A stretch of 64,000 bases of DNA from an uncultured bacterium (GCA_903847095.1 CAINCQ010000016.1:333-64332); one strand, 5' to 3'. Shown: positions 3,348 through 60,846, numbered from the stretch's first letter. The notes: generated by a model not told the origin, from the sequence alone. Program-made: numbers and translations.

Positions 3348-3489
3348 TCCAATGACCTCCTTGTAAACGAACTGACTTTAATTATTTTTAAAATAAAAGC
3401 GAAAATATGTCAAATTTTTTTAATCTTCGAAAAAAATGCTATAGTTTTAAATTCGCGATACTTTTTGCGAATTACAAAAAATACGATTA

Positions 3490-6641: not shown

Positions 6642-7040
6642 ATGGACGAAAAAGACAAGAAGAAAGCTCTTCGACAATTGAGAAAAGAATACAAAACCGC
6701 TTCGACTAAAAAGGAAAAAGAGGAGATCCTCGCTAAATTGGCCGAACTTGCCACAACCTTCAAAAATTGTATCAATATCGCGGTTTTGGCAACGCAGGGA
6801 GAAATTTCGACTCCGAAAGCCGTCATAACAAAAATGAGCGATCTGGCAAAAACCTTTGCTGAATGCAGCCACGCGTTTCGCTTGGCATCGTGGAGCGGCA
6901 ACATCGGCGCGGCCATGACCGCCTTGGGAAAGATAAGCCACATGTGCGAAGAAAGAAAGCTTAAGCCGTCCCAAAAAAAGCTGTATTACGGCATGAGCGC
7001 CTGGGCCGACAGTCTCTCCGGCAAAATGCCGAACGCCTGA
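6642..7040 (+). CDS. hypothetical protein (132 aa)
   Basis: ORF 6636..7040. ATG at 6642 is preceded by GGAGGtttgaga. Lys/Glu-rich N-terminus, no known motif. Confidence 0.55.
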   Translation: MDEKDKKKALRQLRKEYKTASTKKEKEEILAKLAELATTFKNCINIAVLATQGEISTPKAVITKMSDLAKTFAECSHAFRLASWSGNIGAAMTALGKISHMCEERKLKPSQKKLYYGMSAWADSLSGKMPNA

Positions 7041-7067
7041 CCATATTTGAAAATTGGGGTGATAAGA

Positions 7068-7589
7068 ATGAATCTACTGGAATTATTAATCAAATGCCGC
7101 CAAGCTTGGCTCGTGAAGAAATACGTAGCCTTAATGATCACCGATCAGAAAAAAACAACAATTCCCGCCTTAAGCAAGCTGCTCGACATGGATAATCTTA
7201 CTGTTTCACTGGCGGTAACTTATCTCCTATACACCAAGGAAATATCAATTGCCAGCTTCATCGAGACAAAGAAAAGCAACAAGGAAGAATTGCTGCCGGA
7301 ATACTCCAGCCGCGAATACTTGCTTAATAAGGAAGAGCGCCTAAAAGCCGAGAAAAAACGCGTCCTGGAGCGCGTAAGACAGGCGCTTCCCGAAGAAGAA
7401 TTTACCATCACCGCGCTGGCTCGGGAACTGAAAGAAGACGAATACGCTGTCTTGGAAGCGATAGCCGATCTGTCCGTGTTAGGCGAAGTAGCCGATACCG
7501 GCCGGTCCGTACGAGCATCTGACAACTCAAACGTATTTTTTCCAATCTACGTTAAATCAAAAACCGCCCAAACCGCTATCAAATCCTGA
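7068..7589 (+). CDS. hypothetical protein with two winged-helix-like segments
   Basis: ORF 7047..7589. ATG at 7068 follows GGGGTGAtaaga. The segments TIPALSKLLDMDNLTVSLAVTYL and FTITALARELKEDEYAVLEAIADL look like HTH recognition units (weak, by eye). Confidence 0.5.
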   Translation: MNLLELLIKCRQAWLVKKYVALMITDQKKTTIPALSKLLDMDNLTVSLAVTYLLYTKEISIASFIETKKSNKEELLPEYSSREYLLNKEERLKAEKKRVLERVRQALPEEEFTITALARELKEDEYAVLEAIADLSVLGEVADTGRSVRASDNSNVFFPIYVKSKTAQTAIKS

Positions 7590-7614
7590 TAGCTTTTTTA
7601 TTACCTGCTTTTGA

Positions 7615-7642
7615 TTGACAAAAGGCCAAAAAAATCGATAAT
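7615..7642 (+). promoter_or_regulatory. sigma70-like promoter upstream of tRNA-Leu
   Basis: TTGACA (7615-7620), 16-nt spacer, GATAAT (7637-7642). Confidence 0.45.
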
Positions 7643-7720
7643 AGATACTGTTCGCTAACCGCCGAAGTGGTGGTTCGGCGGGCACCGCGTGAACATAAAC
7701 CATCTTTTCCATTAAAATAC

Positions 7721-25015: not shown

Positions 25016-25120
25016 TATCCAAACGTCTCCATTGGTTTTTAAAGTACGATATTGATTATAATGATTTTTTTTAATCCGTCAATAAAAAAACAGGAGATCT
25101 TCCTGTTTTAAACACACTCA

Positions 25121-25480: not shown

Positions 25481-25543
25481 ACCATTCCTCCTGATTCTTA
25501 AATTGCTTTTTTGATTATAATCAATTATATAAATTAGTCAAGG

Positions 25544-26460: not shown

Positions 26461-27711
26461 CTAGAAAAGCTTTTTTTGCTTACCGGTTGCTTTTGCCACG
26501 ATTTCATCGTCAAAAATTTTAATTTTGCCGTAAACACCATCGTAACCGGGAACAACGGAAACTCTTCCTTCTCTTACTCTTATAACGCCTTCGGCGATTT
26601 CTGGCAAGCTGACTTTTTCCAAATCGGCGCGGGAGGGGCCAAGCAGCACGGCAAATTCCGAACCGAAGTTTTTGACCAGATTATCATATTCCATCTGGAC
26701 TTGTTTTGAAGCCGTCATTACCTTCAGGGCATCGGATATTATTTCTTGCAAAGGAACAAAATGTTTGAAAGGTATCGCTCCCGGAGGCTTATAACCTTCG
26801 GGCCGGTCAGCCAATTCTTCGATCCTGTTGACGACGCCGATCGTCAGCTCCCTTCCGCAAACCGGACAATTACCGTTGTATCTTTTCGATTCCTGAGGCG
26901 AAAAACTGGCATTGCACGCCCTATGGCCGTCAAAATGATATTTCCCTTCCGCGGGAAAAAATTCGATCGTGTATAAGAACTTTTCCGGGTCTTTGTTTTT
27001 TATCGCTTCGATGATTTCGAAATAATCGATCCCGGTGTCGAAGATATTGGCTTCGCGGGCAAGTTTTTGGGGCGAGTGAGCGTCCGAATTGGAAATCAGC
27101 GCTACTCTTCGGCCATCCGGGATCCGCCAAAGCATCTCCGGATCGGCCGACAAACCGGTTTCGATGGCATAAATGTATTTCGTATAATCCTCAAAACATT
27201 CTTGGAGCGAGTCAAATCCGGATTTTGATCCGAAGATCCCAAACCATGGCGTCATCGCATGAGCCGGAACGACCAGACACTGTTCGGAAGCGTCAAGAAC
27301 GATCTTGACAAGCTCTTTGGCGTCGAGTCCGAGGATCGGGCGTCCGTCGCTCGCCAAATTGCCAATTCGGGAAAGCCGGGCGTTGATCTTTTCTACAACC
27401 TCGATCGTTGGGGCATAAACAACGATATGGATTTTTCTTACTTGCCCGTTTTTTGAATAAATACAGCTAACCTCGGCCGAAAGCAAAAAACGGGTCGGGC
27501 TGTTTTTTCCTTTTAATTTAAAAAGTCCGGGCTCGGCCGGTTCCAAGTCGCGATTCAGTTCCGACAACCACTCCGGATGGGTAAAATCACCGGTACCAAG
27601 GATCTTGATACCTTTGATGCGCGCCCAAGCATCAAGCGCCCGGATATTCATGTTGATCGACGTTGCCCTGGAAAATCTTGAGTGCAAATGAAGATCAGCC
27701 GCGAATTTCAT
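26461..27711 (-). CDS. PHP-domain protein, endonuclease Q-like
   Basis: 416-aa ORF. DLHLHSRFSRATS PHP start, later HAMTPW and SDAHS metal ligands, and a CPVCGRELTIGV zinc finger. This layout matches my recollection of EndoQ. Confidence 0.55.
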   Translation of the reverse strand: MKFAADLHLHSRFSRATSINMNIRALDAWARIKGIKILGTGDFTHPEWLSELNRDLEPAEPGLFKLKGKNSPTRFLLSAEVSCIYSKNGQVRKIHIVVYAPTIEVVEKINARLSRIGNLASDGRPILGLDAKELVKIVLDASEQCLVVPAHAMTPWFGIFGSKSGFDSLQECFEDYTKYIYAIETGLSADPEMLWRIPDGRRVALISNSDAHSPQKLAREANIFDTGIDYFEIIEAIKNKDPEKFLYTIEFFPAEGKYHFDGHRACNASFSPQESKRYNGNCPVCGRELTIGVVNRIEELADRPEGYKPPGAIPFKHFVPLQEIISDALKVMTASKQVQMEYDNLVKNFGSEFAVLLGPSRADLEKVSLPEIAEGVIRVREGRVSVVPGYDGVYGKIKIFDDEIVAKATGKQKKLF

Positions 27712-27734
27712 ATATTTGGGTTAACCGCGTCCTC

Positions 27735-27870
27735 TTGTAAATTTATTTATTTTCTTAATGTGTTTCGACGCCGCAGGGCATTAACCCTGCGGATCGACCA
27801 AAGGAGTACCTCCTTTGGAATCCTCAAAATTCGCAACCCCGAGGCAAGACCTCAGGAAGTTGCGAATTTT
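27735..27870. repeat. dispersed structured repeat, copy A
   Basis: An AT-rich head TTGTAAATTTATTTATTTTCTTAATGT is followed by three perfect hairpins (27771-27792, 27798-27818, 27826-27870). Homologous to 60149-60310 (same orientation) and 29111-29255 (inverted). Confidence 0.7.
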
Positions 27871-27878
27871 AAAAACCC

Positions 27879-28310
27879 TTATCCTTTGTCAAAAACCCTT
27901 CTTTCAAGAAAACCGAAAACCACCAGGACGAAAAGAGTGAGCAAAGTGCTGGCTACGGCTTCCACGTAGAGTTCCATGGCTACGGCAATGCCTATTGCCG
28001 AAACGACCCATAAGCCCGCGGCGGTCGTAAGTCCTTCAATGTGCTTCTCTCCCCTAAAAACAACCCCGGCTCCGATAAAACCGATCCCGGTCGCCACTGC
28101 CTGGATCAAATGAGTGGGATCAATCGATCCCCCGGCGGCATCACCGCGCAAATGGAATGTAAGAACTGCAAAAAGAGCGGAGCCCAGGCCAACCAGGCTA
28201 TAAGTTTGAAGACCCGCTCCTCTTTTTTTCATCTCTCTTTCAAAACCGATCAAACCGCATAAAAGAACGGTTAAAAAAAGTTGAAGAATTATTTTAAACT
28301 CCGCATCCAT
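27879..28310 (-). CDS. MgtC/SapB-family membrane protein
   Basis: 143-aa ORF. GFEREMKKRGAGLQTYSLVGLGSALF and TGIGFIGAG are typical of the MgtC N-domain. Confidence 0.75.
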   Translation of the reverse strand: MDAEFKIILQLFLTVLLCGLIGFEREMKKRGAGLQTYSLVGLGSALFAVLTFHLRGDAAGGSIDPTHLIQAVATGIGFIGAGVVFRGEKHIEGLTTAAGLWVVSAIGIAVAMELYVEAVASTLLTLFVLVVFGFLERRVFDKG

Positions 28311-28346
28311 TGATTATTGATCGCTGATTATCGATACCCGCCTTGG

Positions 28347-28931
28347 TCAAATATCCGTTTTTTGCTTTTCTTTCTTGATCGCCGCCAAAACCCTCTCCAC
28401 AAGCTTCAAAGGATCCCGATCGTAGATTATCCTTTTTGAAACCCGGTAAGGCCCGTTGGCTATAGAACGAATCTTGTCGGCCGTCCCGCCCGAACCCTCC
28501 AAAACCCCGATGATCTTCCGGCACTCAAAAGCGGTCGCGAATTCATGCAAAGTTCCGATACGGCCGCAAATTATGATCACGGCATCGGAAGATTTGGTCA
28601 TAATAATATCCCTTCCCACGTAATCGGATCCGGTATAGACCATTACGTCGAACGGTTCGACCGGCAAGCGGTATGTTTTAACATGGGCGGCTTCCGAGGT
28701 CGCGGGAGAAAAACCAACGTTGAACCCTCCGGCTTCCCGGCAACCCTCGGCGCAAAAATAAGGAACCCCGGTAGTCGCTCCGGTGACCAGGGTGCATCCC
28801 TGGCGGGCTATCTCCCGCCCGATCGTCCTTGAAAGCAGTATTACCTTATCGCAACAATGGGAAATCTCCGCCGCTCCCGATACGGCAATTTCATACTGCA
28901 TATTATTTCTATTACTTGACTGATTCGGCAT
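28347..28931 (-). CDS. TIGR00725/SLOG-type Rossmann protein (LOG/DprA-like superfamily)
   Basis: 194-aa ORF. IAVSGAAE..GCTLVTGATTGVP..VIIICGRIGTLHEF pattern. The start is uncertain (alternative ATG at 28901). Confidence 0.5.
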   Translation of the reverse strand: MPNQSSNRNNMQYEIAVSGAAEISHCCDKVILLSRTIGREIARQGCTLVTGATTGVPYFCAEGCREAGGFNVGFSPATSEAAHVKTYRLPVEPFDVMVYTGSDYVGRDIIMTKSSDAVIIICGRIGTLHEFATAFECRKIIGVLEGSGGTADKIRSIANGPYRVSKRIIYDRDPLKLVERVLAAIKKEKQKTDI

Positions 28932-29110
28932 TTCCGCGGCTATTTTAAATTGTCCGAGTGAAGCTGCTTCAAACCAGCGCTATCTTACGCGTAAAAATAT
29001 TTTTTCTTTTTTTGATCCGGCAAATTACCCCGCGTTCCACGCAAGGCAGTTCATTCTTACTTTAAAGCTATTTTATCAAAACGGGAAGCAAAAGTAAAAA
29101 AGTTTCTTGT

Positions 29111-29255
29111 GATATTTTTTATTAGCTAAATACCCCGCATGCTATGCATCGGGGTATTGAGTTAAGAGGATTCCGAAGGGGTGCCCCCTTTGGCTGCAAG
29201 ATCGGGGTTTAATACCCCGATCGCGGAATCAATTTAAAAATATAATATTTATTGG
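29111..29255. repeat. dispersed structured repeat, copy C (inverted relative to A and B)
   Basis: Hairpins at 29129-29158, 29173-29193 and 29200-29222, plus an AT-rich end at 29230-29255. The reverse complement aligns with copy B over its 3' two-thirds. Confidence 0.7.
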
Positions 29256-29538
29256 ATTTAGCCGAACACCGCCGGAAACAAAAACCGCCGGAGATCCGAC
29301 GGGCTTTGGTGAGGGGAAAGCGTTCAGCATGAAATCAGTTAAGGTTTTAACTACAGCCTGGCAGAGGCTATTAGGCCTACTTAACCTCCTTCACGGAAGA
29401 ACATTCTGCCTATTGGGTAAAAACCCTCATCCCCTCAAATACATTCTAGCCGTAAATACTTTTATGTCAAGCGAACCCAAAAGAGGTCCTGAATGCAGCG
29501 AAAATCAAAAATACCGGGTCTTTTTTTACGCCATTTCC

Positions 29539-30609
29539 TCAATCTTTGGTCAATGGATCTTTGTTCATTTTCACCTCCAAACCGTCCTTTCTTCCGTCGC
29601 CGTCGGTATCGGGATTCTTGGGATTGGTGTGATAAATCTGCGTCTCCTGATAGTCGTTCAAGCCATCGCCGTCGGTATCGGGATTTCCGGGATCGGTCCC
29701 AAGAATCAGCCATTCGTTTCCGTCGCCAAGTCTGTCGCCGTCGGTATCGGGATTCTTGGGATCGAGGTTCATGAACAATTCGTTGCCATCGGCAATCCCA
29801 TCCTTATCGGTATCGATCCTGCGCGCTTCCATAAGACCCAATTCCGCGACCTTCAAGCAAAGGTCCTTATAGTCGGGATTGACCACCACATCGCAGTCCT
29901 TGGCTTCCTTGGCTGTGATCATCGCGTCTTCGTCAATGCAGTACTGCCGGAATTCCACAGGCACCTTGGAACAGTCACCTCCATATTTTGACCCGAAGGA
30001 ATTAAGCAGGCACAGGTGGGCGTATTCTTCCGTTCCAAGCTTGGCGCATTCTTTGATGTCGTCCTTTTTACCGCTGGAAGCGATCGCGAAAGACGTTGCG
30101 ACATCCTGGCATTCTTTCAACTCGAAAGATTCGCTGAATACGGTGGCGCAGATACTGGGATCCCTTGAGGCTATCGCCACATCACTCACACATGTTTCTT
30201 TTTTCTTGATATCGGGTATTTTCAAACAAAGATCGACGTCTTTTAAATTATCGGCGACCCGATTCATGCAATCGTTCCTCGTCTCTTCAACTACGATCCC
30301 CCCGCAGGCCAAAAAATTATCCCTATCGATGGCGTCACTAAGGATTATCCCGTCAAGACAAGCCTGGATCTTATCCTTGCCTTCAAGTACCAAACAATCT
30401 TCTTTCGTCATTGGCATCACATCGTAAACATCTTCAACGACGGCCGGACTCTCGCCCTTCCCCACAACCGCTTCATTTTTTTTCGGGGACGGCTTATAAA
30501 AGAAAACTACGTAAAGGATCACAAAACAAAGAACCATGCAAGCGATGCCGCCGTAATAAAAAAGCTGCCTTCTTTTATCGAGCTCTTCGATGAAATTATC
30601 TTCTTCCAT
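29539..30609 (-). CDS. membrane-anchored Cys-rich protein with C-terminal thrombospondin type-3-like calcium-binding repeats
   Basis: 356-aa ORF. N-terminal TM (YYGGIACMVLCFVILYVVFFY), repeated Cys modules, then DTDKDGIADGNE / NPDTDGDRLGDGNE / NPDTDGDGLNDYQE / NPDTDGDGRKDGLE. Confidence 0.7.
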   Translation of the reverse strand: MEEDNFIEELDKRRQLFYYGGIACMVLCFVILYVVFFYKPSPKKNEAVVGKGESPAVVEDVYDVMPMTKEDCLVLEGKDKIQACLDGIILSDAIDRDNFLACGGIVVEETRNDCMNRVADNLKDVDLCLKIPDIKKKETCVSDVAIASRDPSICATVFSESFELKECQDVATSFAIASSGKKDDIKECAKLGTEEYAHLCLLNSFGSKYGGDCSKVPVEFRQYCIDEDAMITAKEAKDCDVVVNPDYKDLCLKVAELGLMEARRIDTDKDGIADGNELFMNLDPKNPDTDGDRLGDGNEWLILGTDPGNPDTDGDGLNDYQETQIYHTNPKNPDTDGDGRKDGLEVKMNKDPLTKD

Positions 30610-37554: not shown

Positions 37555-39177
37555 ATGATAAAAAGGTTATCAGAAAAAAACGGTAAGTCAATGGAACGTC
37601 AAATTACAATCGCGGAAAAACTGATCCAAGACGACCCGAAAACAAAAACGGAATTAGACGCGTTCAAACGGAAAATTTGCGTGGAATTAAAAATTCCCTA
37701 TCCGGGTAATATCTCCCTGCTTTCGGCCTTAAACAAACTTGGCGGCGGAAAATCCGCCGAACAATCCCGCCGCGAACTTTATAACCTGTTGCGCGTCCGG
37801 CCGGTCCGGTCGCTTTCGGGCATCGTCAATGTTTCGGTTCTGACCAAGCCCTATCCCTGTCCCGGAATCTGCCTTTACTGCCCGCAGGAAACCGGTTTTC
37901 CGAAAAGCTATCTGTCGGGCGAACCGGCAGCGGAACGGGCCAGCCGCCTGAAATTCGATCCCGGAAAACAAGTCTCCGGCCGCCTTCGCACCCTGGCCGA
38001 AGAAGCCCACCCAATAGACAAGATCGAAATGCGGGTCATCGGAGGAACTTGGAGTTTCTATAAAAAAGCTTACCAAGAATCGTTTATCAAGAAATGTTTT
38101 TTTAGCTGTAATAATTTTAACGCCCCGCGTTCCAGAAAAATCGGCTCCCTGAAACAAGAGCAAAAAATCAATGAATCGGCTAAATGCCGGATCATCGGAC
38201 TGTCGGTCGAAACCCGGCCGGATTTTATCAGCGGAAAAGAAATCATCCATTTAAGGAATCTTGGCGTAACCAAAGTGGAATTGGGAATCCAAAGCATTTA
38301 CGATGACGTGCTCGATTTAAATCAAAGAGGCCATAAAGTCGATTCTACGATAAAAGCAACGCGGCTTTTAAAAAACTCCGGCTTCAAAATAGCCTACCAG
38401 ATAATGCTTAATCTCTATGGCTCTTCGCCTCAAAAAGATATTGAAATGATGAAAACAATCTTTAACGACGAACGTTTCCAGCCCGATACGCTCAAAATTT
38501 ATCCCTGCGCCGTCTTGCGCGAAGCCCCGCTTTATGAATTATACGAAAAAGGCTTGTTTAAACCTTATCCGGATAAAAAACTGATCGAGGTTATCAAAGA
38601 AATAAAAAAGAACATCCCGCCCTATCTAAGGATCGAGCGGATCATCCGCGACATCCCCTCCCCCCGGATCGCCGAAGGCACCAAAACCGTTTCCAATCTC
38701 CGCCAGATCATCGCGGCGGATATGGTAAAAGAAAATTGGCGCTGCCAATGCATCCGTTGCCGCGAAATAAAAGGAGACTATGACCCAAAGGAAAAAGTAT
38801 ATATGGCGCGCCGCGAATACAAAGCTTCGGGCGGACAGGAGATTTTTTTAAGCTTTGAGAACAAAGAACAAACCAAAATCTTCAGCCTGTTGCGTCTGCG
38901 CATCAGCCAAAACCCGGATCCCGCAATTCCGGCACTGAAAAATTCCGCGTTAATAAGAGAGATTCATACTTATGGTTTCCAGCTTGCCGTGGCGGAAAAA
39001 ACGTCGGCCGTCCAACACCAAGGCTTAGGAAAAAAATTGATCCTGGAAGCGGAAAAAATCGCGAAAAAAGAATTCGGATACGAAAAAATCGCGGCCATCT
39101 CCGGAATCGGAGCGCGCGAATACTGGCGCAAATCCGGCTACAAATTAAAAGCTACCTACATGATAAAGAACCTTTGA
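37555..39177 (+). CDS. elp3: Elp3-type radical SAM/GNAT tRNA uridine(34) modification enzyme homolog
   Basis: 540-aa ORF. Radical-SAM cluster region PYPCPGICLYCP, central TIM-like domain, C-terminal GNAT motif QHQGLGKKLILEAEKIA. The start is uncertain (alternative ATG at 37591). Confidence 0.8.
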   Translation: MIKRLSEKNGKSMERQITIAEKLIQDDPKTKTELDAFKRKICVELKIPYPGNISLLSALNKLGGGKSAEQSRRELYNLLRVRPVRSLSGIVNVSVLTKPYPCPGICLYCPQETGFPKSYLSGEPAAERASRLKFDPGKQVSGRLRTLAEEAHPIDKIEMRVIGGTWSFYKKAYQESFIKKCFFSCNNFNAPRSRKIGSLKQEQKINESAKCRIIGLSVETRPDFISGKEIIHLRNLGVTKVELGIQSIYDDVLDLNQRGHKVDSTIKATRLLKNSGFKIAYQIMLNLYGSSPQKDIEMMKTIFNDERFQPDTLKIYPCAVLREAPLYELYEKGLFKPYPDKKLIEVIKEIKKNIPPYLRIERIIRDIPSPRIAEGTKTVSNLRQIIAADMVKENWRCQCIRCREIKGDYDPKEKVYMARREYKASGGQEIFLSFENKEQTKIFSLLRLRISQNPDPAIPALKNSALIREIHTYGFQLAVAEKTSAVQHQGLGKKLILEAEKIAKKEFGYEKIAAISGIGAREYWRKSGYKLKATYMIKNL

Positions 39178-39206
39178 TTGAACAAAAAAAACGAGGCTTC
39201 TCCTCG

Positions 39207-39509
39207 TTATTCTTTATTGACCTTAAAGACGGTAATACTTCCGCTAGCTTCTTCTAAAGCCTTTTTGACCGCTATGGCCCTTATTGTCGTGAGCGTCCCG
39301 GGCGCCAAACCGATTTCCTTCTCGATTAACGCCAGATCTTTGCTGGTAACCAACGGGATCAACCCGGCCAATTGTTCTTTTACTTCTTCTTGTGAAAGGT
39401 CAAAGCCTTCGGCTCCGGCCGCAAGCTCCTTAACAAGGATCTTTAAAACCTCGTACTCGCGGGGTTCCAAAGCAACTTCCTTTACCTCAATTACCTCTAT
39501 CCGATCCAT
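39207..39509 (-). CDS. hypothetical protein (100 aa)
   Basis: Acidic ORF, no recognised motif. Confidence 0.5.
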   Translation of the reverse strand: MDRIEVIEVKEVALEPREYEVLKILVKELAAGAEGFDLSQEEVKEQLAGLIPLVTSKDLALIEKEIGLAPGTLTTIRAIAVKKALEEASGSITVFKVNKE

Positions 39510-58274: not shown

Positions 58275-58385
58275 AAAAAACCTCCTTTATAAAGGACTAT
58301 CCATATTCTAGATATCTATTTTAAATTGTCAACAGACAGAGATCATTGGTTAAAACAAAAAGCCCTCTATTCCGGGCTCATTTTT

Positions 58386-60150: not shown

Positions 60151-60310
60151 GTAAATTTATTTATTTTCTTAATGTATTTCGACACCGCAGTGCATTAACC
60201 CCCCGATCTTGCGACCAAAGGGACCCCCTTGAAGCATATTAATGCTTTCGGATTACTTAAGAAATCCTTTTAACTCAATACCTCGATGCATAGCATATGA
60301 AGTATTTCGC
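60149..60310. repeat. dispersed structured repeat, copy B (chimeric/degenerate)
   Basis: The first ~50 nt are nearly identical to copy A (TTGTAAATTTATTTATTTTCTTAATGT[A/G]TTTCGAC[A/G]CCGCAG). The remainder aligns with the reverse complement of copy C, with extra hairpins and mismatches. Confidence 0.7.
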
Positions 60311-60343
60311 CAATAAAAAAAGGAGTTTGCCTCCCTTTTTCGC

Positions 60344-60514: not shown

Positions 60515-60846
60515 TACCTTTTCTCCTCTGCTTTTAAAGTACTAACTCCGGTTAATTATGTTTTGTCGCTCGGCTTCCCCAGGAAAATAAACACCCGATC
60601 CTTCCGGCAACAAACAATCATTTTTTTGCGTATTATACAAACGATAAAGAATGCGGATAAACGATTTTTACTTCTTGACTTGCCCTGAAAATCGTCTATC
60701 GAAATGTCCGGCTTATCGGCCTAATCCCGCGACCTTATACCCTCTTTTTTCCTTATCTGGTTTGAAAATAATTTAAAAATAAGAGAAAGTCAAGCATTGA
60801 AAAAACAGAGGTTAGACCTCCAAAACCGATCGAACTAAATGCCAAA

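Follow-up and report, generated by a model that had tools for sequence, protein, structure and literature searches.

The stretch of DNA analysed here, a window of 64,000 nt from an uncultured bacterium, carries an mgtC-family gene and an endonuclease Q-family gene (endoQ) side by side on the minus strand, and the spacer that separates them holds a hairpin-rich repeat, copy A, which recurs in the window as copies B and C (Table 1). Database proteins near-identical or related to the EndoQ of the window are named Candidatus Nealsonbacteria and Paceibacterota, and the host is a Patescibacteria (CPR) bacterium; the window is part of a metagenome scaffold of 180.8 kb. The initial annotation had described the three copies as a dispersed, structured and entirely intergenic repeat family. 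The gene tables place all three copies between genes, the hairpins follow one another in a common order and spacing, and further copies were found in other Patescibacteria MAGs, so that this description holds.

Table 1. Coordinates of the three repeat copies, their modules and the genes on either side of copy A.
Feature	Position	Strand	Details
endonuclease Q-family gene (endoQ)	26461-27711	-	416 aa
mgtC-endoQ spacer	27712-27878		167 nt; between two minus-strand genes
copy A, whole inserted element	27737..27869	+	A-type short form; GTAAATTT to GCGAATTT
AT-rich head, copy A	27737..27764	+	GTAAATTTATTTATTTTCTTAATGTGTT
H1, copy A	27765..27797	+	outer TCGA/TCGA; inner 27771-27792
H2, copy A	27798..27818	+	CCAAAGGAG-tac-CTCCTTTGG
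single-stranded linker AATCCTC, copy A	27819..27825	+	near-invariant across all copies
H3, copy A	27826..27870	+	AAAATTCGCAAC...GTTGCGAATTTT; loop CAAGA
TAAAA flank	27870..27874	+	right boundary (target side) of copy A insertion
mgtC-family gene	27879-28310	-	stop codon 27879-27881
copy C	29122..29252	-	C-type short form
copy B	60151..60313	+	fusion; H1 broken
extra hairpin H2b, copy B	60224..60242	+	GAAGCAT-ATTA-ATGCTTTC

All three hairpins of copy A lie where the initial annotation had put them. The inner hairpin of H1 is CCGCAGGG-cattaa-CCCTGCGG, and H3 consists of a 12-bp outer and a 7-bp inner stem (CCCGAGG/CCTCAGG); read on the minus strand, H3 begins 8 nt past the mgtC stop, the distance annotated, and is followed by UUUUGAGG. 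Copy C, which is flanked on one side by a conserved small RNA with its terminator and on the other by the SLOG/LDcluster4 promoter, has the same hairpin order, spacing and length from H1 to the end as copy A (117 nt). On the minus strand its H1 is GATCGGGG-tattaaa-CCCCGATC, its H2 is CCAAAGGGG-gca-CCCCTTCGG and its H3 is built around ATACCCCG/CGGGGTAT. These hairpins are present with the pairing annotated, except that H2 contains one A.C mismatch and H3 extends over 16 bp. Both copies fold far better than shuffled sequences as RNA (z = -6.3 on the plus strand and -8.9 on the minus strand for copy A, and -5.3 and -6.2 for copy C), with none of 200 shuffles as good, and also as DNA (z = -8.4/-9.8 for copy A and -5.9/-6.9 for copy C), in which case both strands fold equally well.

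The plan of the family comprises an AT-rich head, H1, H2 (CCAAAGGRG/CYCCTTTGG), an optional hairpin H2b, the linker AATCCTC, a long H3 and an A-rich end. The consensus, given here for the C-type, is ATAAATTTTATATTTTCCATTTGAGT-CCGC-GATCGGGG-TATTAA-CCCCGATC-TT-GCGG-CCAAAGGGG-GCA-CCCCTTTGG-AATCCTCTTGG-[H3]-TCAA, followed by TAAAA. The family divides into at least two subfamilies; the A-type and the C-type have a common architecture and wholly different H1 and H3 stems, and they occur together within the same genomes. The A-type includes copy A, positions 4247-4386 of L028 (from the MAG labelled 'Saccharibacteria') and a copy in L039, and L039c represents a more divergent third type. Heads have the form ATAAATTTTATATTTTCC or GTAAATTTATTT, and tails end in ...YYAA or ...AATTT; the head of copy A has 27 nt that are the same in copy B and L039a and is homologous to the C-type head ATAAATTTTATATTTTCC. 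Both subfamilies include short forms, which span 114-118 nt between a point immediately ahead of H1 and the element's end, and long forms, which carry H2b within the 3' arm of H2. The loop of H2b is kept (ATTA/AATA) while its stems differ between copies (GCAAG/CTTGC in L019, L021 and L028, AAGCAT/ATGCTT in copy B, and ACGATTT/AAATCGT in L039a). The most conserved module is H2, in which the C-type has GGGG/CCCC, so that one pair covaries between the subfamilies; the linkers TTGCGG and AATCCTC are likewise conserved. The (C/T)ATTAA loop of H1, which the initial annotation regarded as retained, is common but not universal: L026 has TTCTTGA, L028b has GTTAAT, L039c has TATGAAA, and L014 lacks it.

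A search of GTDB species genomes with a pattern spanning the H1-H2 junction yielded 19 matches, of which 8 were true copies, all in Patescibacteria MAGs (4 in one MAG labelled Saccharibacteria, others in Paceibacterota), and 11 were chance matches inside genes. A pattern for the H3 junction had no match in the GTDB genomes and, without its last three positions, a single match on a JGI metagenome contig (L014); viral contigs contained no match to either the shortened H3-junction pattern or the H1 pattern. A profile search of the flanks fetched around these matches recovered more copies, truncated copies and solo H3-like hairpins, for a sample of about 20 distinct copies from several genomes that share module order, spacing and linkers (nhmmer E down to 1e-54; 1e-37 for copy A). 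The core of copy C is 83-90% identical to copies of other Patescibacteria MAGs, among which L019 is the single MAG that could be compared with the window, with one shared protein that is 37% identical. With nhmmer, no copies beyond A, B and C were found in the 64-kb window and none in about 90 kb from sister species. Rfam models gave nothing at the gathering score across the window and only chance-level matches (E ≥ 0.2) over 27600-29600 when the cut-off was relaxed locally to E ≤ 5-10. In the searches made, the family occurs in Patescibacteria MAGs only, and no report of such repeats in CPR/Patescibacteria was found in the searchable literature; the family is apparently undescribed, though of a familiar kind of bacterial repeat.

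Solo H3-like hairpins with the core CCCCGGGGCAAAGCCCCGAGG and variable outer stems lie in the 'Saccharibacteria' MAG (L031 2513-2556, 2606-2640, 425-467 and 520-550; L019 7100-7130; L028 4642-4683), and L028a resembles a copy with a swapped 3' arm of H3. Such arrangements suggest that modules of the element circulate independently, as in a BIME-like mosaic. We also noted direct repeats of about 50 nt in the window (25033-25082, 25492-25541, 3382-3431 and 58283-58332), 60-72% identical, which lie upstream of small genes and contain a TTGATTATAAT-like promoter sequence; their likeness probably reflects related promoter sequences and not a mobile repeat.

GC-rich hairpins in intergenic DNA could simply be unrelated intrinsic terminators or chance palindromes that look alike, and UUUU does follow H3 of copy A on the mgtC strand. 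Most copies, however, have no U tract past any hairpin, a terminator scan calls none of them, and the real terminators of this genome are short canonical hairpins with T runs. Absence of shared order and spacing would be expected of generic terminators; the outcome was the opposite, and since the architecture is common to about 20 copies of several genomes this explanation is refuted and retains hardly any probability. The narrower suggestion that H3 of copy A doubles as the mgtC terminator is plausible, but the consensus scan does not call this hairpin and only four U follow its stem, partly inside it.

We next consider whether the stems themselves are maintained. Among 13 C-type copies, 90.6% of the cells of 28 named pairs are standard-paired and 9 pairs have changed on both sides, which none of 500 shuffles reached; with slid partners as controls, pairing falls to 32-48%. 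Among 4 A-type copies, 93.1% of the cells of 40 pairs are paired and four pairs show double changes, all from the distant L028b. Three of these compensatory pairs distinguish its H3 outer stem from that of copy A, and the fourth is an A-T to G-C change in H1. Between the subfamilies most positions of H1 differ, and pairing is perfect in both. The compensatory stem changes proposed from the window copies are thus recovered in a larger sample, and the hairpins are maintained by such changes across subfamilies and hosts. Mismatched cells on the element strand include 34 A.C (which would be G.U on the reverse strand) and 18 G.U, but after collapsing shared or register-forced positions these amount to about 22 vs. 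16 events, which is not significant, and there is no convincing strand bias. The covariation is compatible with either RNA or single-stranded DNA as the relevant molecule.

Several candidate features of individual copies were discarded. The similarity of the H1 3' arm to the H3 5' arm in the window copies (CCCTGCGG~CCCTGAGG and ACCCCGAT~ACCCCGAT) is ambiguous in other hosts. A mimic of the 16S rRNA 3' end (a helix-45-like H1 plus ACCTCCTTT), scored against reference 3' ends, reached z = 1.6-2.6 in copy A and was seen nowhere else. The small ORFs that can be read from the sequence past the SD-like 5' arm of H2 are not kept between copies, nor is the tRNA-like closing stem GATTCC/GGAATC of copy C (a weak mascRNA match, E 0.37).

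Comparison of orthologous loci shows that the copies are lineage-specific insertions, with differences even among close strains and species. The spacer that parts mgtC from endoQ measures 28-33 nt in L007, L009, L012 and L013, relatives with EndoQ 74-84% identical, and 34 nt in L037/L038, a strain with 97% identical EndoQ, vs. 167 nt in the window and in L034/L036, a 98% strain; copy A is present in the latter two and absent from the 34-nt spacer of L037/L038. Copy A is a recent insertion of about 133 nt. In L037 the empty allele might have arisen by precise loss and not be ancestral, but the four more distant relatives are also empty. Copy C is present in L034 and L037 and absent from the orthologous TSP3-SLOG spacer in L007, L009 and L012, where the adjoining small RNA is conserved. 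Past a murA gene that is 83% identical to that of the window, L014 has a copy where the window has none, in a comparison in which gene order downstream of murA differs, so that this is not a clean empty site.

In element orientation, the empty mgtC-endoQ site reads CGTCTCTT|TAAAAAATATTTACCC and the occupied site CGTCCTCTT|GTAAATT...GCGAATTT|TAAAAATATTTACCC. A second, independent A-type site past the purC terminator has the same flanks as copy A: GGCTC-T8-AAAAC in the empty relative L041, and GGCTC-T6-[GTAAATTT...AATTT]-TAAAAAC in the occupied L039 and the window. At both sites the A-type element, which starts with G, sits between a T run and TAAAA, and, whatever the genome, almost every copy is followed by TAA(A) in element orientation. 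No terminal inverted repeats are present, the left end being GTAAATTTATT or ATAAATTTTAT and the right end ...GCGAATTT or ...CACTCAA, with only TTG/CAA complementary. Neither of the two empty/occupied comparisons reveals a clean target duplication: to read 'TAAA' as a repeat, one would have to allow an additional G separating it from the flank at each of the two sites, and the orientation of TAAA relative to the element is always the same, although the homopolymer flanks blur the exact boundaries and a 4-bp TAAA duplication stays a small ambiguity. Integron attC-like cores were not seen when the element sequence was read for them. The places in which copies insert are AT-rich and close to the ends of genes, and both orientations occur.

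The relations among strains are themselves mosaic over 26461-29540. Around copy C the window differs by 0-1.4% from L037 and by 5-7% from L034, and in mgtC and endoQ it is about equally far from both (3.6-6%); copy A is common to the window and L034 but not L037, and the fused copy B is common to the L037 lineage but not L034/L039. Such a pattern implies either that strains have exchanged DNA by homologous recombination or that copy A has been lost precisely.

Copy B, at the purC locus, records what can happen to neighbouring elements. Its head is 86% identical to copy A and its tail 86% identical to copy C: the A-type head and H1 5' arm extend to about 60198, and from the H1 3' arm onward the sequence is that of a C-type long form. 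On the contig that also carries L034, L039 has a purC 90% identical to that of the window, and past it lies an intact tandem of an A-type long form (6958-7136), a 40-nt spacer and a C-type long form (7164-7336). Copy B is exactly the product expected of a deletion between the two H1 loops of this tandem (…ATTAA-CCC…), and is a deletion fusion of the tandem A-type and C-type pair that is intact in the sister strain. Such a deletion accounts for the chimeric H1 (CCGCAGTG … CCCCCCGATC), whose arms cannot pair. This comparison shows that family members recombine across short H1-loop homology, and the fact that a copy with a broken H1 is retained speaks against the idea that every copy serves the host. 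L039 further contains a third copy that has no counterpart in the window. This copy (7579-7713) is a divergent short form with H1 GGCGTGG/CCACACC and loop TATGAAA; an unrelated sequence of about 290 nt lies at the corresponding place in the window (about 60550-60835), and homology resumes at AATAAGA-AAGTCAAGC.

We compared the divergence of resident copies with that of their surroundings. Between the window and L034, copy C differs by 7.0% and copy A by 4.5%, vs. 2.7-5.6% for flanking genes and 5-17% for other spacers, whereas the small RNA that adjoins copy C differs by 0.5% from L034 and 0.0% from L037. At the B locus, copy B diverges by 1.7% and its flanks by 0-0.2%. Resident copies thus drift about as fast as their flanks, and the consensus is conserved between hosts. 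Taken together, these two observations indicate that copies derive from active sources or are exchanged between hosts, rather than representing a conserved host RNA. The neighbours of the copies are unrelated to one another (EndoQ, MgtC, PurC, an MFS transporter, a hydrolase, RecG, ribosomal protein L21 and tRNAs) and copies occur in both orientations relative to them; for about 9 of 12 copies, the H3 side is the one that adjoins a gene 3' end. A consensus scan detected neither a sigma-70-like promoter nor an intrinsic terminator inside copies A or C, and no sigma-70 consensus in the AT-rich head of copy A; the same scan detected the real promoter and terminator of the adjoining small RNA. An outward promoter on the reverse strand, considered for 4-5 copies in which the AT-rich end lies upstream of endoQ, tRNA or rplU starts, was rejected: no -35/-10 consensus is present and as many copies face gene ends.

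The small RNA just mentioned is a candidate in its own right. It lies on the minus strand at 29285-29470, with a length of about 150-165 nt, a strong promoter (TTGACA-16-TAGAAT, 11/12) and an intrinsic terminator, CCGTCGG-atct-CCGGCGG-TTTTTGTTT. Its predicted fold is a long irregular hairpin with the closing stem GAGGGGA/TCCCCTC. It diverges by 0-0.5% between strains and is highly conserved in relatives with 77-84% EndoQ identity, where its flanks diverge; no Rfam model matches it even at E ≤ 10. A divergent 6S-like RNA, or some other RNA specific to CPR, is a possible identity. The neighbouring gene for a bacterial TSP3-repeat protein (29539-30609) contains three 69-nt tandem coding repeats (29593-29762) that are 84-97% identical. 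Elsewhere in the window, ARAGORN predicts a 90-nt tRNA-Asp (GTC) on the minus strand at 39164-39253, where the Rfam tRNA model is silent at the gathering score; a 2026 paper on Patescibacteria describes tRNA-Asp and tRNA-Asn genes that standard tools miss owing to introns.

The covarying stems could also be explained by selection at the RNA level, the copies being used by the host either as genes for structured small RNAs or as cis-acting RNA modules that, for instance, stabilise 3' ends or act as insulators. Conserved single-stranded loops and linkers, together with stems of variable length inserted at a fixed internal position under conserved ATTA loops, would also be expected of a functional RNA; the conserved overall length, the placement of the H3 side at gene 3' ends and the somewhat better folding of the reverse-strand RNA agree with it, and the raw excess of A.C over G.U cells on the element strand would favour a reverse-strand RNA. 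That excess, however, disappears into the non-significant event counts given above, and several observations speak against a host RNA: the copies diverge at least as much as their flanks, in contrast to the invariant real sRNA only 30 nt distant, their presence varies between strains 97-98% identical, copy B is kept despite its destroyed H1, orientation to neighbours is mixed, and neither promoter or terminator consensus nor an Rfam family was matched. We therefore regard a host-used RNA as unlikely. The initial annotation had argued for selection on structure; the stems are indeed kept, but drift, presence/absence and mixed orientation give no pointer to a conserved RNA gene or regulator. Because copies are polymorphic, drift like their flanks, occur in mixed orientation and lack a promoter or terminator consensus, selection on structure is best placed on the propagation of the element itself, and not on what the single copies might do for the host.

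Known repeats provide the frame for this reading. BOX of Streptococcus pneumoniae (boxA-boxB(n)-boxC) and ERIC/IRU of enterobacteria are intergenic repeats of 100-200 nt with stable hairpins; they have modular short and long forms, occur in both orientations and often downstream of genes, have no transposase of their own and are polymorphic between strains. The present family resembles them in size class, intergenic hairpins, optional modules, both orientations, a frequent location past gene ends, strain polymorphism and the lack of its own transposase, but has no sequence similarity to them, a Patescibacteria host, three different hairpins with an AT-rich head, no terminal inverted repeats that we could see, and two subfamilies with different H1 and H3 stems. 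Classical MITEs, derivatives of DDE elements such as Correia and RUP, are likewise small, non-coding, dispersed and insertion-polymorphic, with possible effects on neighbouring transcription, but the terminal inverted repeats and target-site duplications that define MITEs are absent here.

Closer in its ends is PATE, a non-autonomous IS200/IS605 derivative moved as single-stranded DNA by an HUH Y1 transposase. Both lack terminal inverted repeats and a clean target duplication, insert beside a fixed AT-rich oligonucleotide (here T-run|TAAAA at two sites), leave an apparently precise empty allele and have subterminal hairpins, the left end and H1 being separated by about 21-28 nt, and H3 and the right end by 0-8 nt. 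In PATE, however, the end hairpins are similar and served by one TnpA, whereas H1 and H3 differ in sequence, length and loop; the present element has a third conserved hairpin, H2, in its middle, and shows no replication-orientation bias (the neighbouring copies A and C are opposed). Neither TnpA/TnpB nor a full-length element with matching ends was found in the scanned parts of the window or the fetched flanks, which are a minor part of each genome. More broadly, Pfam scans and gene tables of copy neighbours in other MAGs, of the genes flanking the window copies, and of window parts 1-16.5 kb and 37.5-44.7 kb revealed housekeeping genes only, with no transposase or other candidate gene for mobilisation.

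REP/BIME repeats with their RAYT enzymes share with this family a hairpin-based mosaic build, clusters and tandems, placement at gene ends and structure kept despite drift. A domesticated version of such a system, in which a RAYT-type enzyme spreads the hairpins and the host exploits them (for example in mRNA 3'-end protection, transcription punctuation or nucleoid protein binding), would account for the modular copies in both orientations, the tandem pairs, the solo H3-like hairpins scattered in the CAZUST MAG, the preference for positions just past gene ends and the absence of terminal inverted repeats and target duplications. It is at odds with a much longer, composite unit of 120-180 nt with three different hairpins instead of a 20-40-nt palindrome with a conserved GTAG-type head, with the modest copy number (3 in 64 kb) and with the lack of a RAYT or Y1 transposase gene in the parts scanned. 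We consider the domesticated version rather improbable; such a host-exploited REP-like role is a variant of the mobile-repeat reading.

The reading that we favour, and hold to be probable, is a non-autonomous, structure-dependent mobile repeat like REP/BIME, BOX or PATE. The hairpins would then be signals needed to copy or move the element, probably in single-stranded DNA form and through a trans-acting enzyme, for which an HUH/Y1 transposase of the IS200/IS605-RAYT type is one candidate and some other site-specific enzyme another. Selection would act on active source copies and not on each resident copy. Once in place, copies change about as quickly as their flanks and undergo recombination among themselves, as in copy B. 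At mgtC-endoQ, insertion of copy A would have the side effect of parting two genes that are presumably co-transcribed in relatives by three stable hairpins, and the hairpin met first on the gene strand, followed by UUUU, may attenuate read-through from mgtC to endoQ. Mobilisation specifically as hairpin single-stranded DNA in the manner of IS200/IS605/RAYT is more doubtful, with a chance of about one in three in our estimate: the end hairpins H1 and H3 are unlike, no such enzyme was found in the parts scanned, and the opposite orientation of adjacent copies A (+) and C (-), 1.3 kb apart, argues against strict strand-specific insertion.

A mobile repeat of familiar kind is not the only possible reading of the same features. 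The family might instead belong to a new structure-dependent, CPR-specific class, either a non-autonomous element with an unrecognised enzyme or a multi-copy functional RNA, although we think this improbable. As an element, such a class could be characterised by the absence of inverted repeats and duplication, the T-run|TAAAA target and three obligatory hairpins; as an RNA, the core of H2 and AATCCTC could bind a CPR-specific factor, the DNA copies spreading between distant lineages.

The genomes of CPR/Patescibacteria are small and streamlined, and little is known of their mobile DNA. A repeat family common to Nealsonbacteria/Paceibacterota and a 'Saccharibacteria'-labelled MAG would mark DNA exchange between episymbionts, and would supply strain-level variation, such as the uncoupling of mgtC from endoQ. 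It would also serve as a warning for the search for RNA motifs, in that the covariation observed here would reflect selection on a selfish element and not on a host RNA, and as a handle for finding the enzyme that moves hairpin DNA in CPR.
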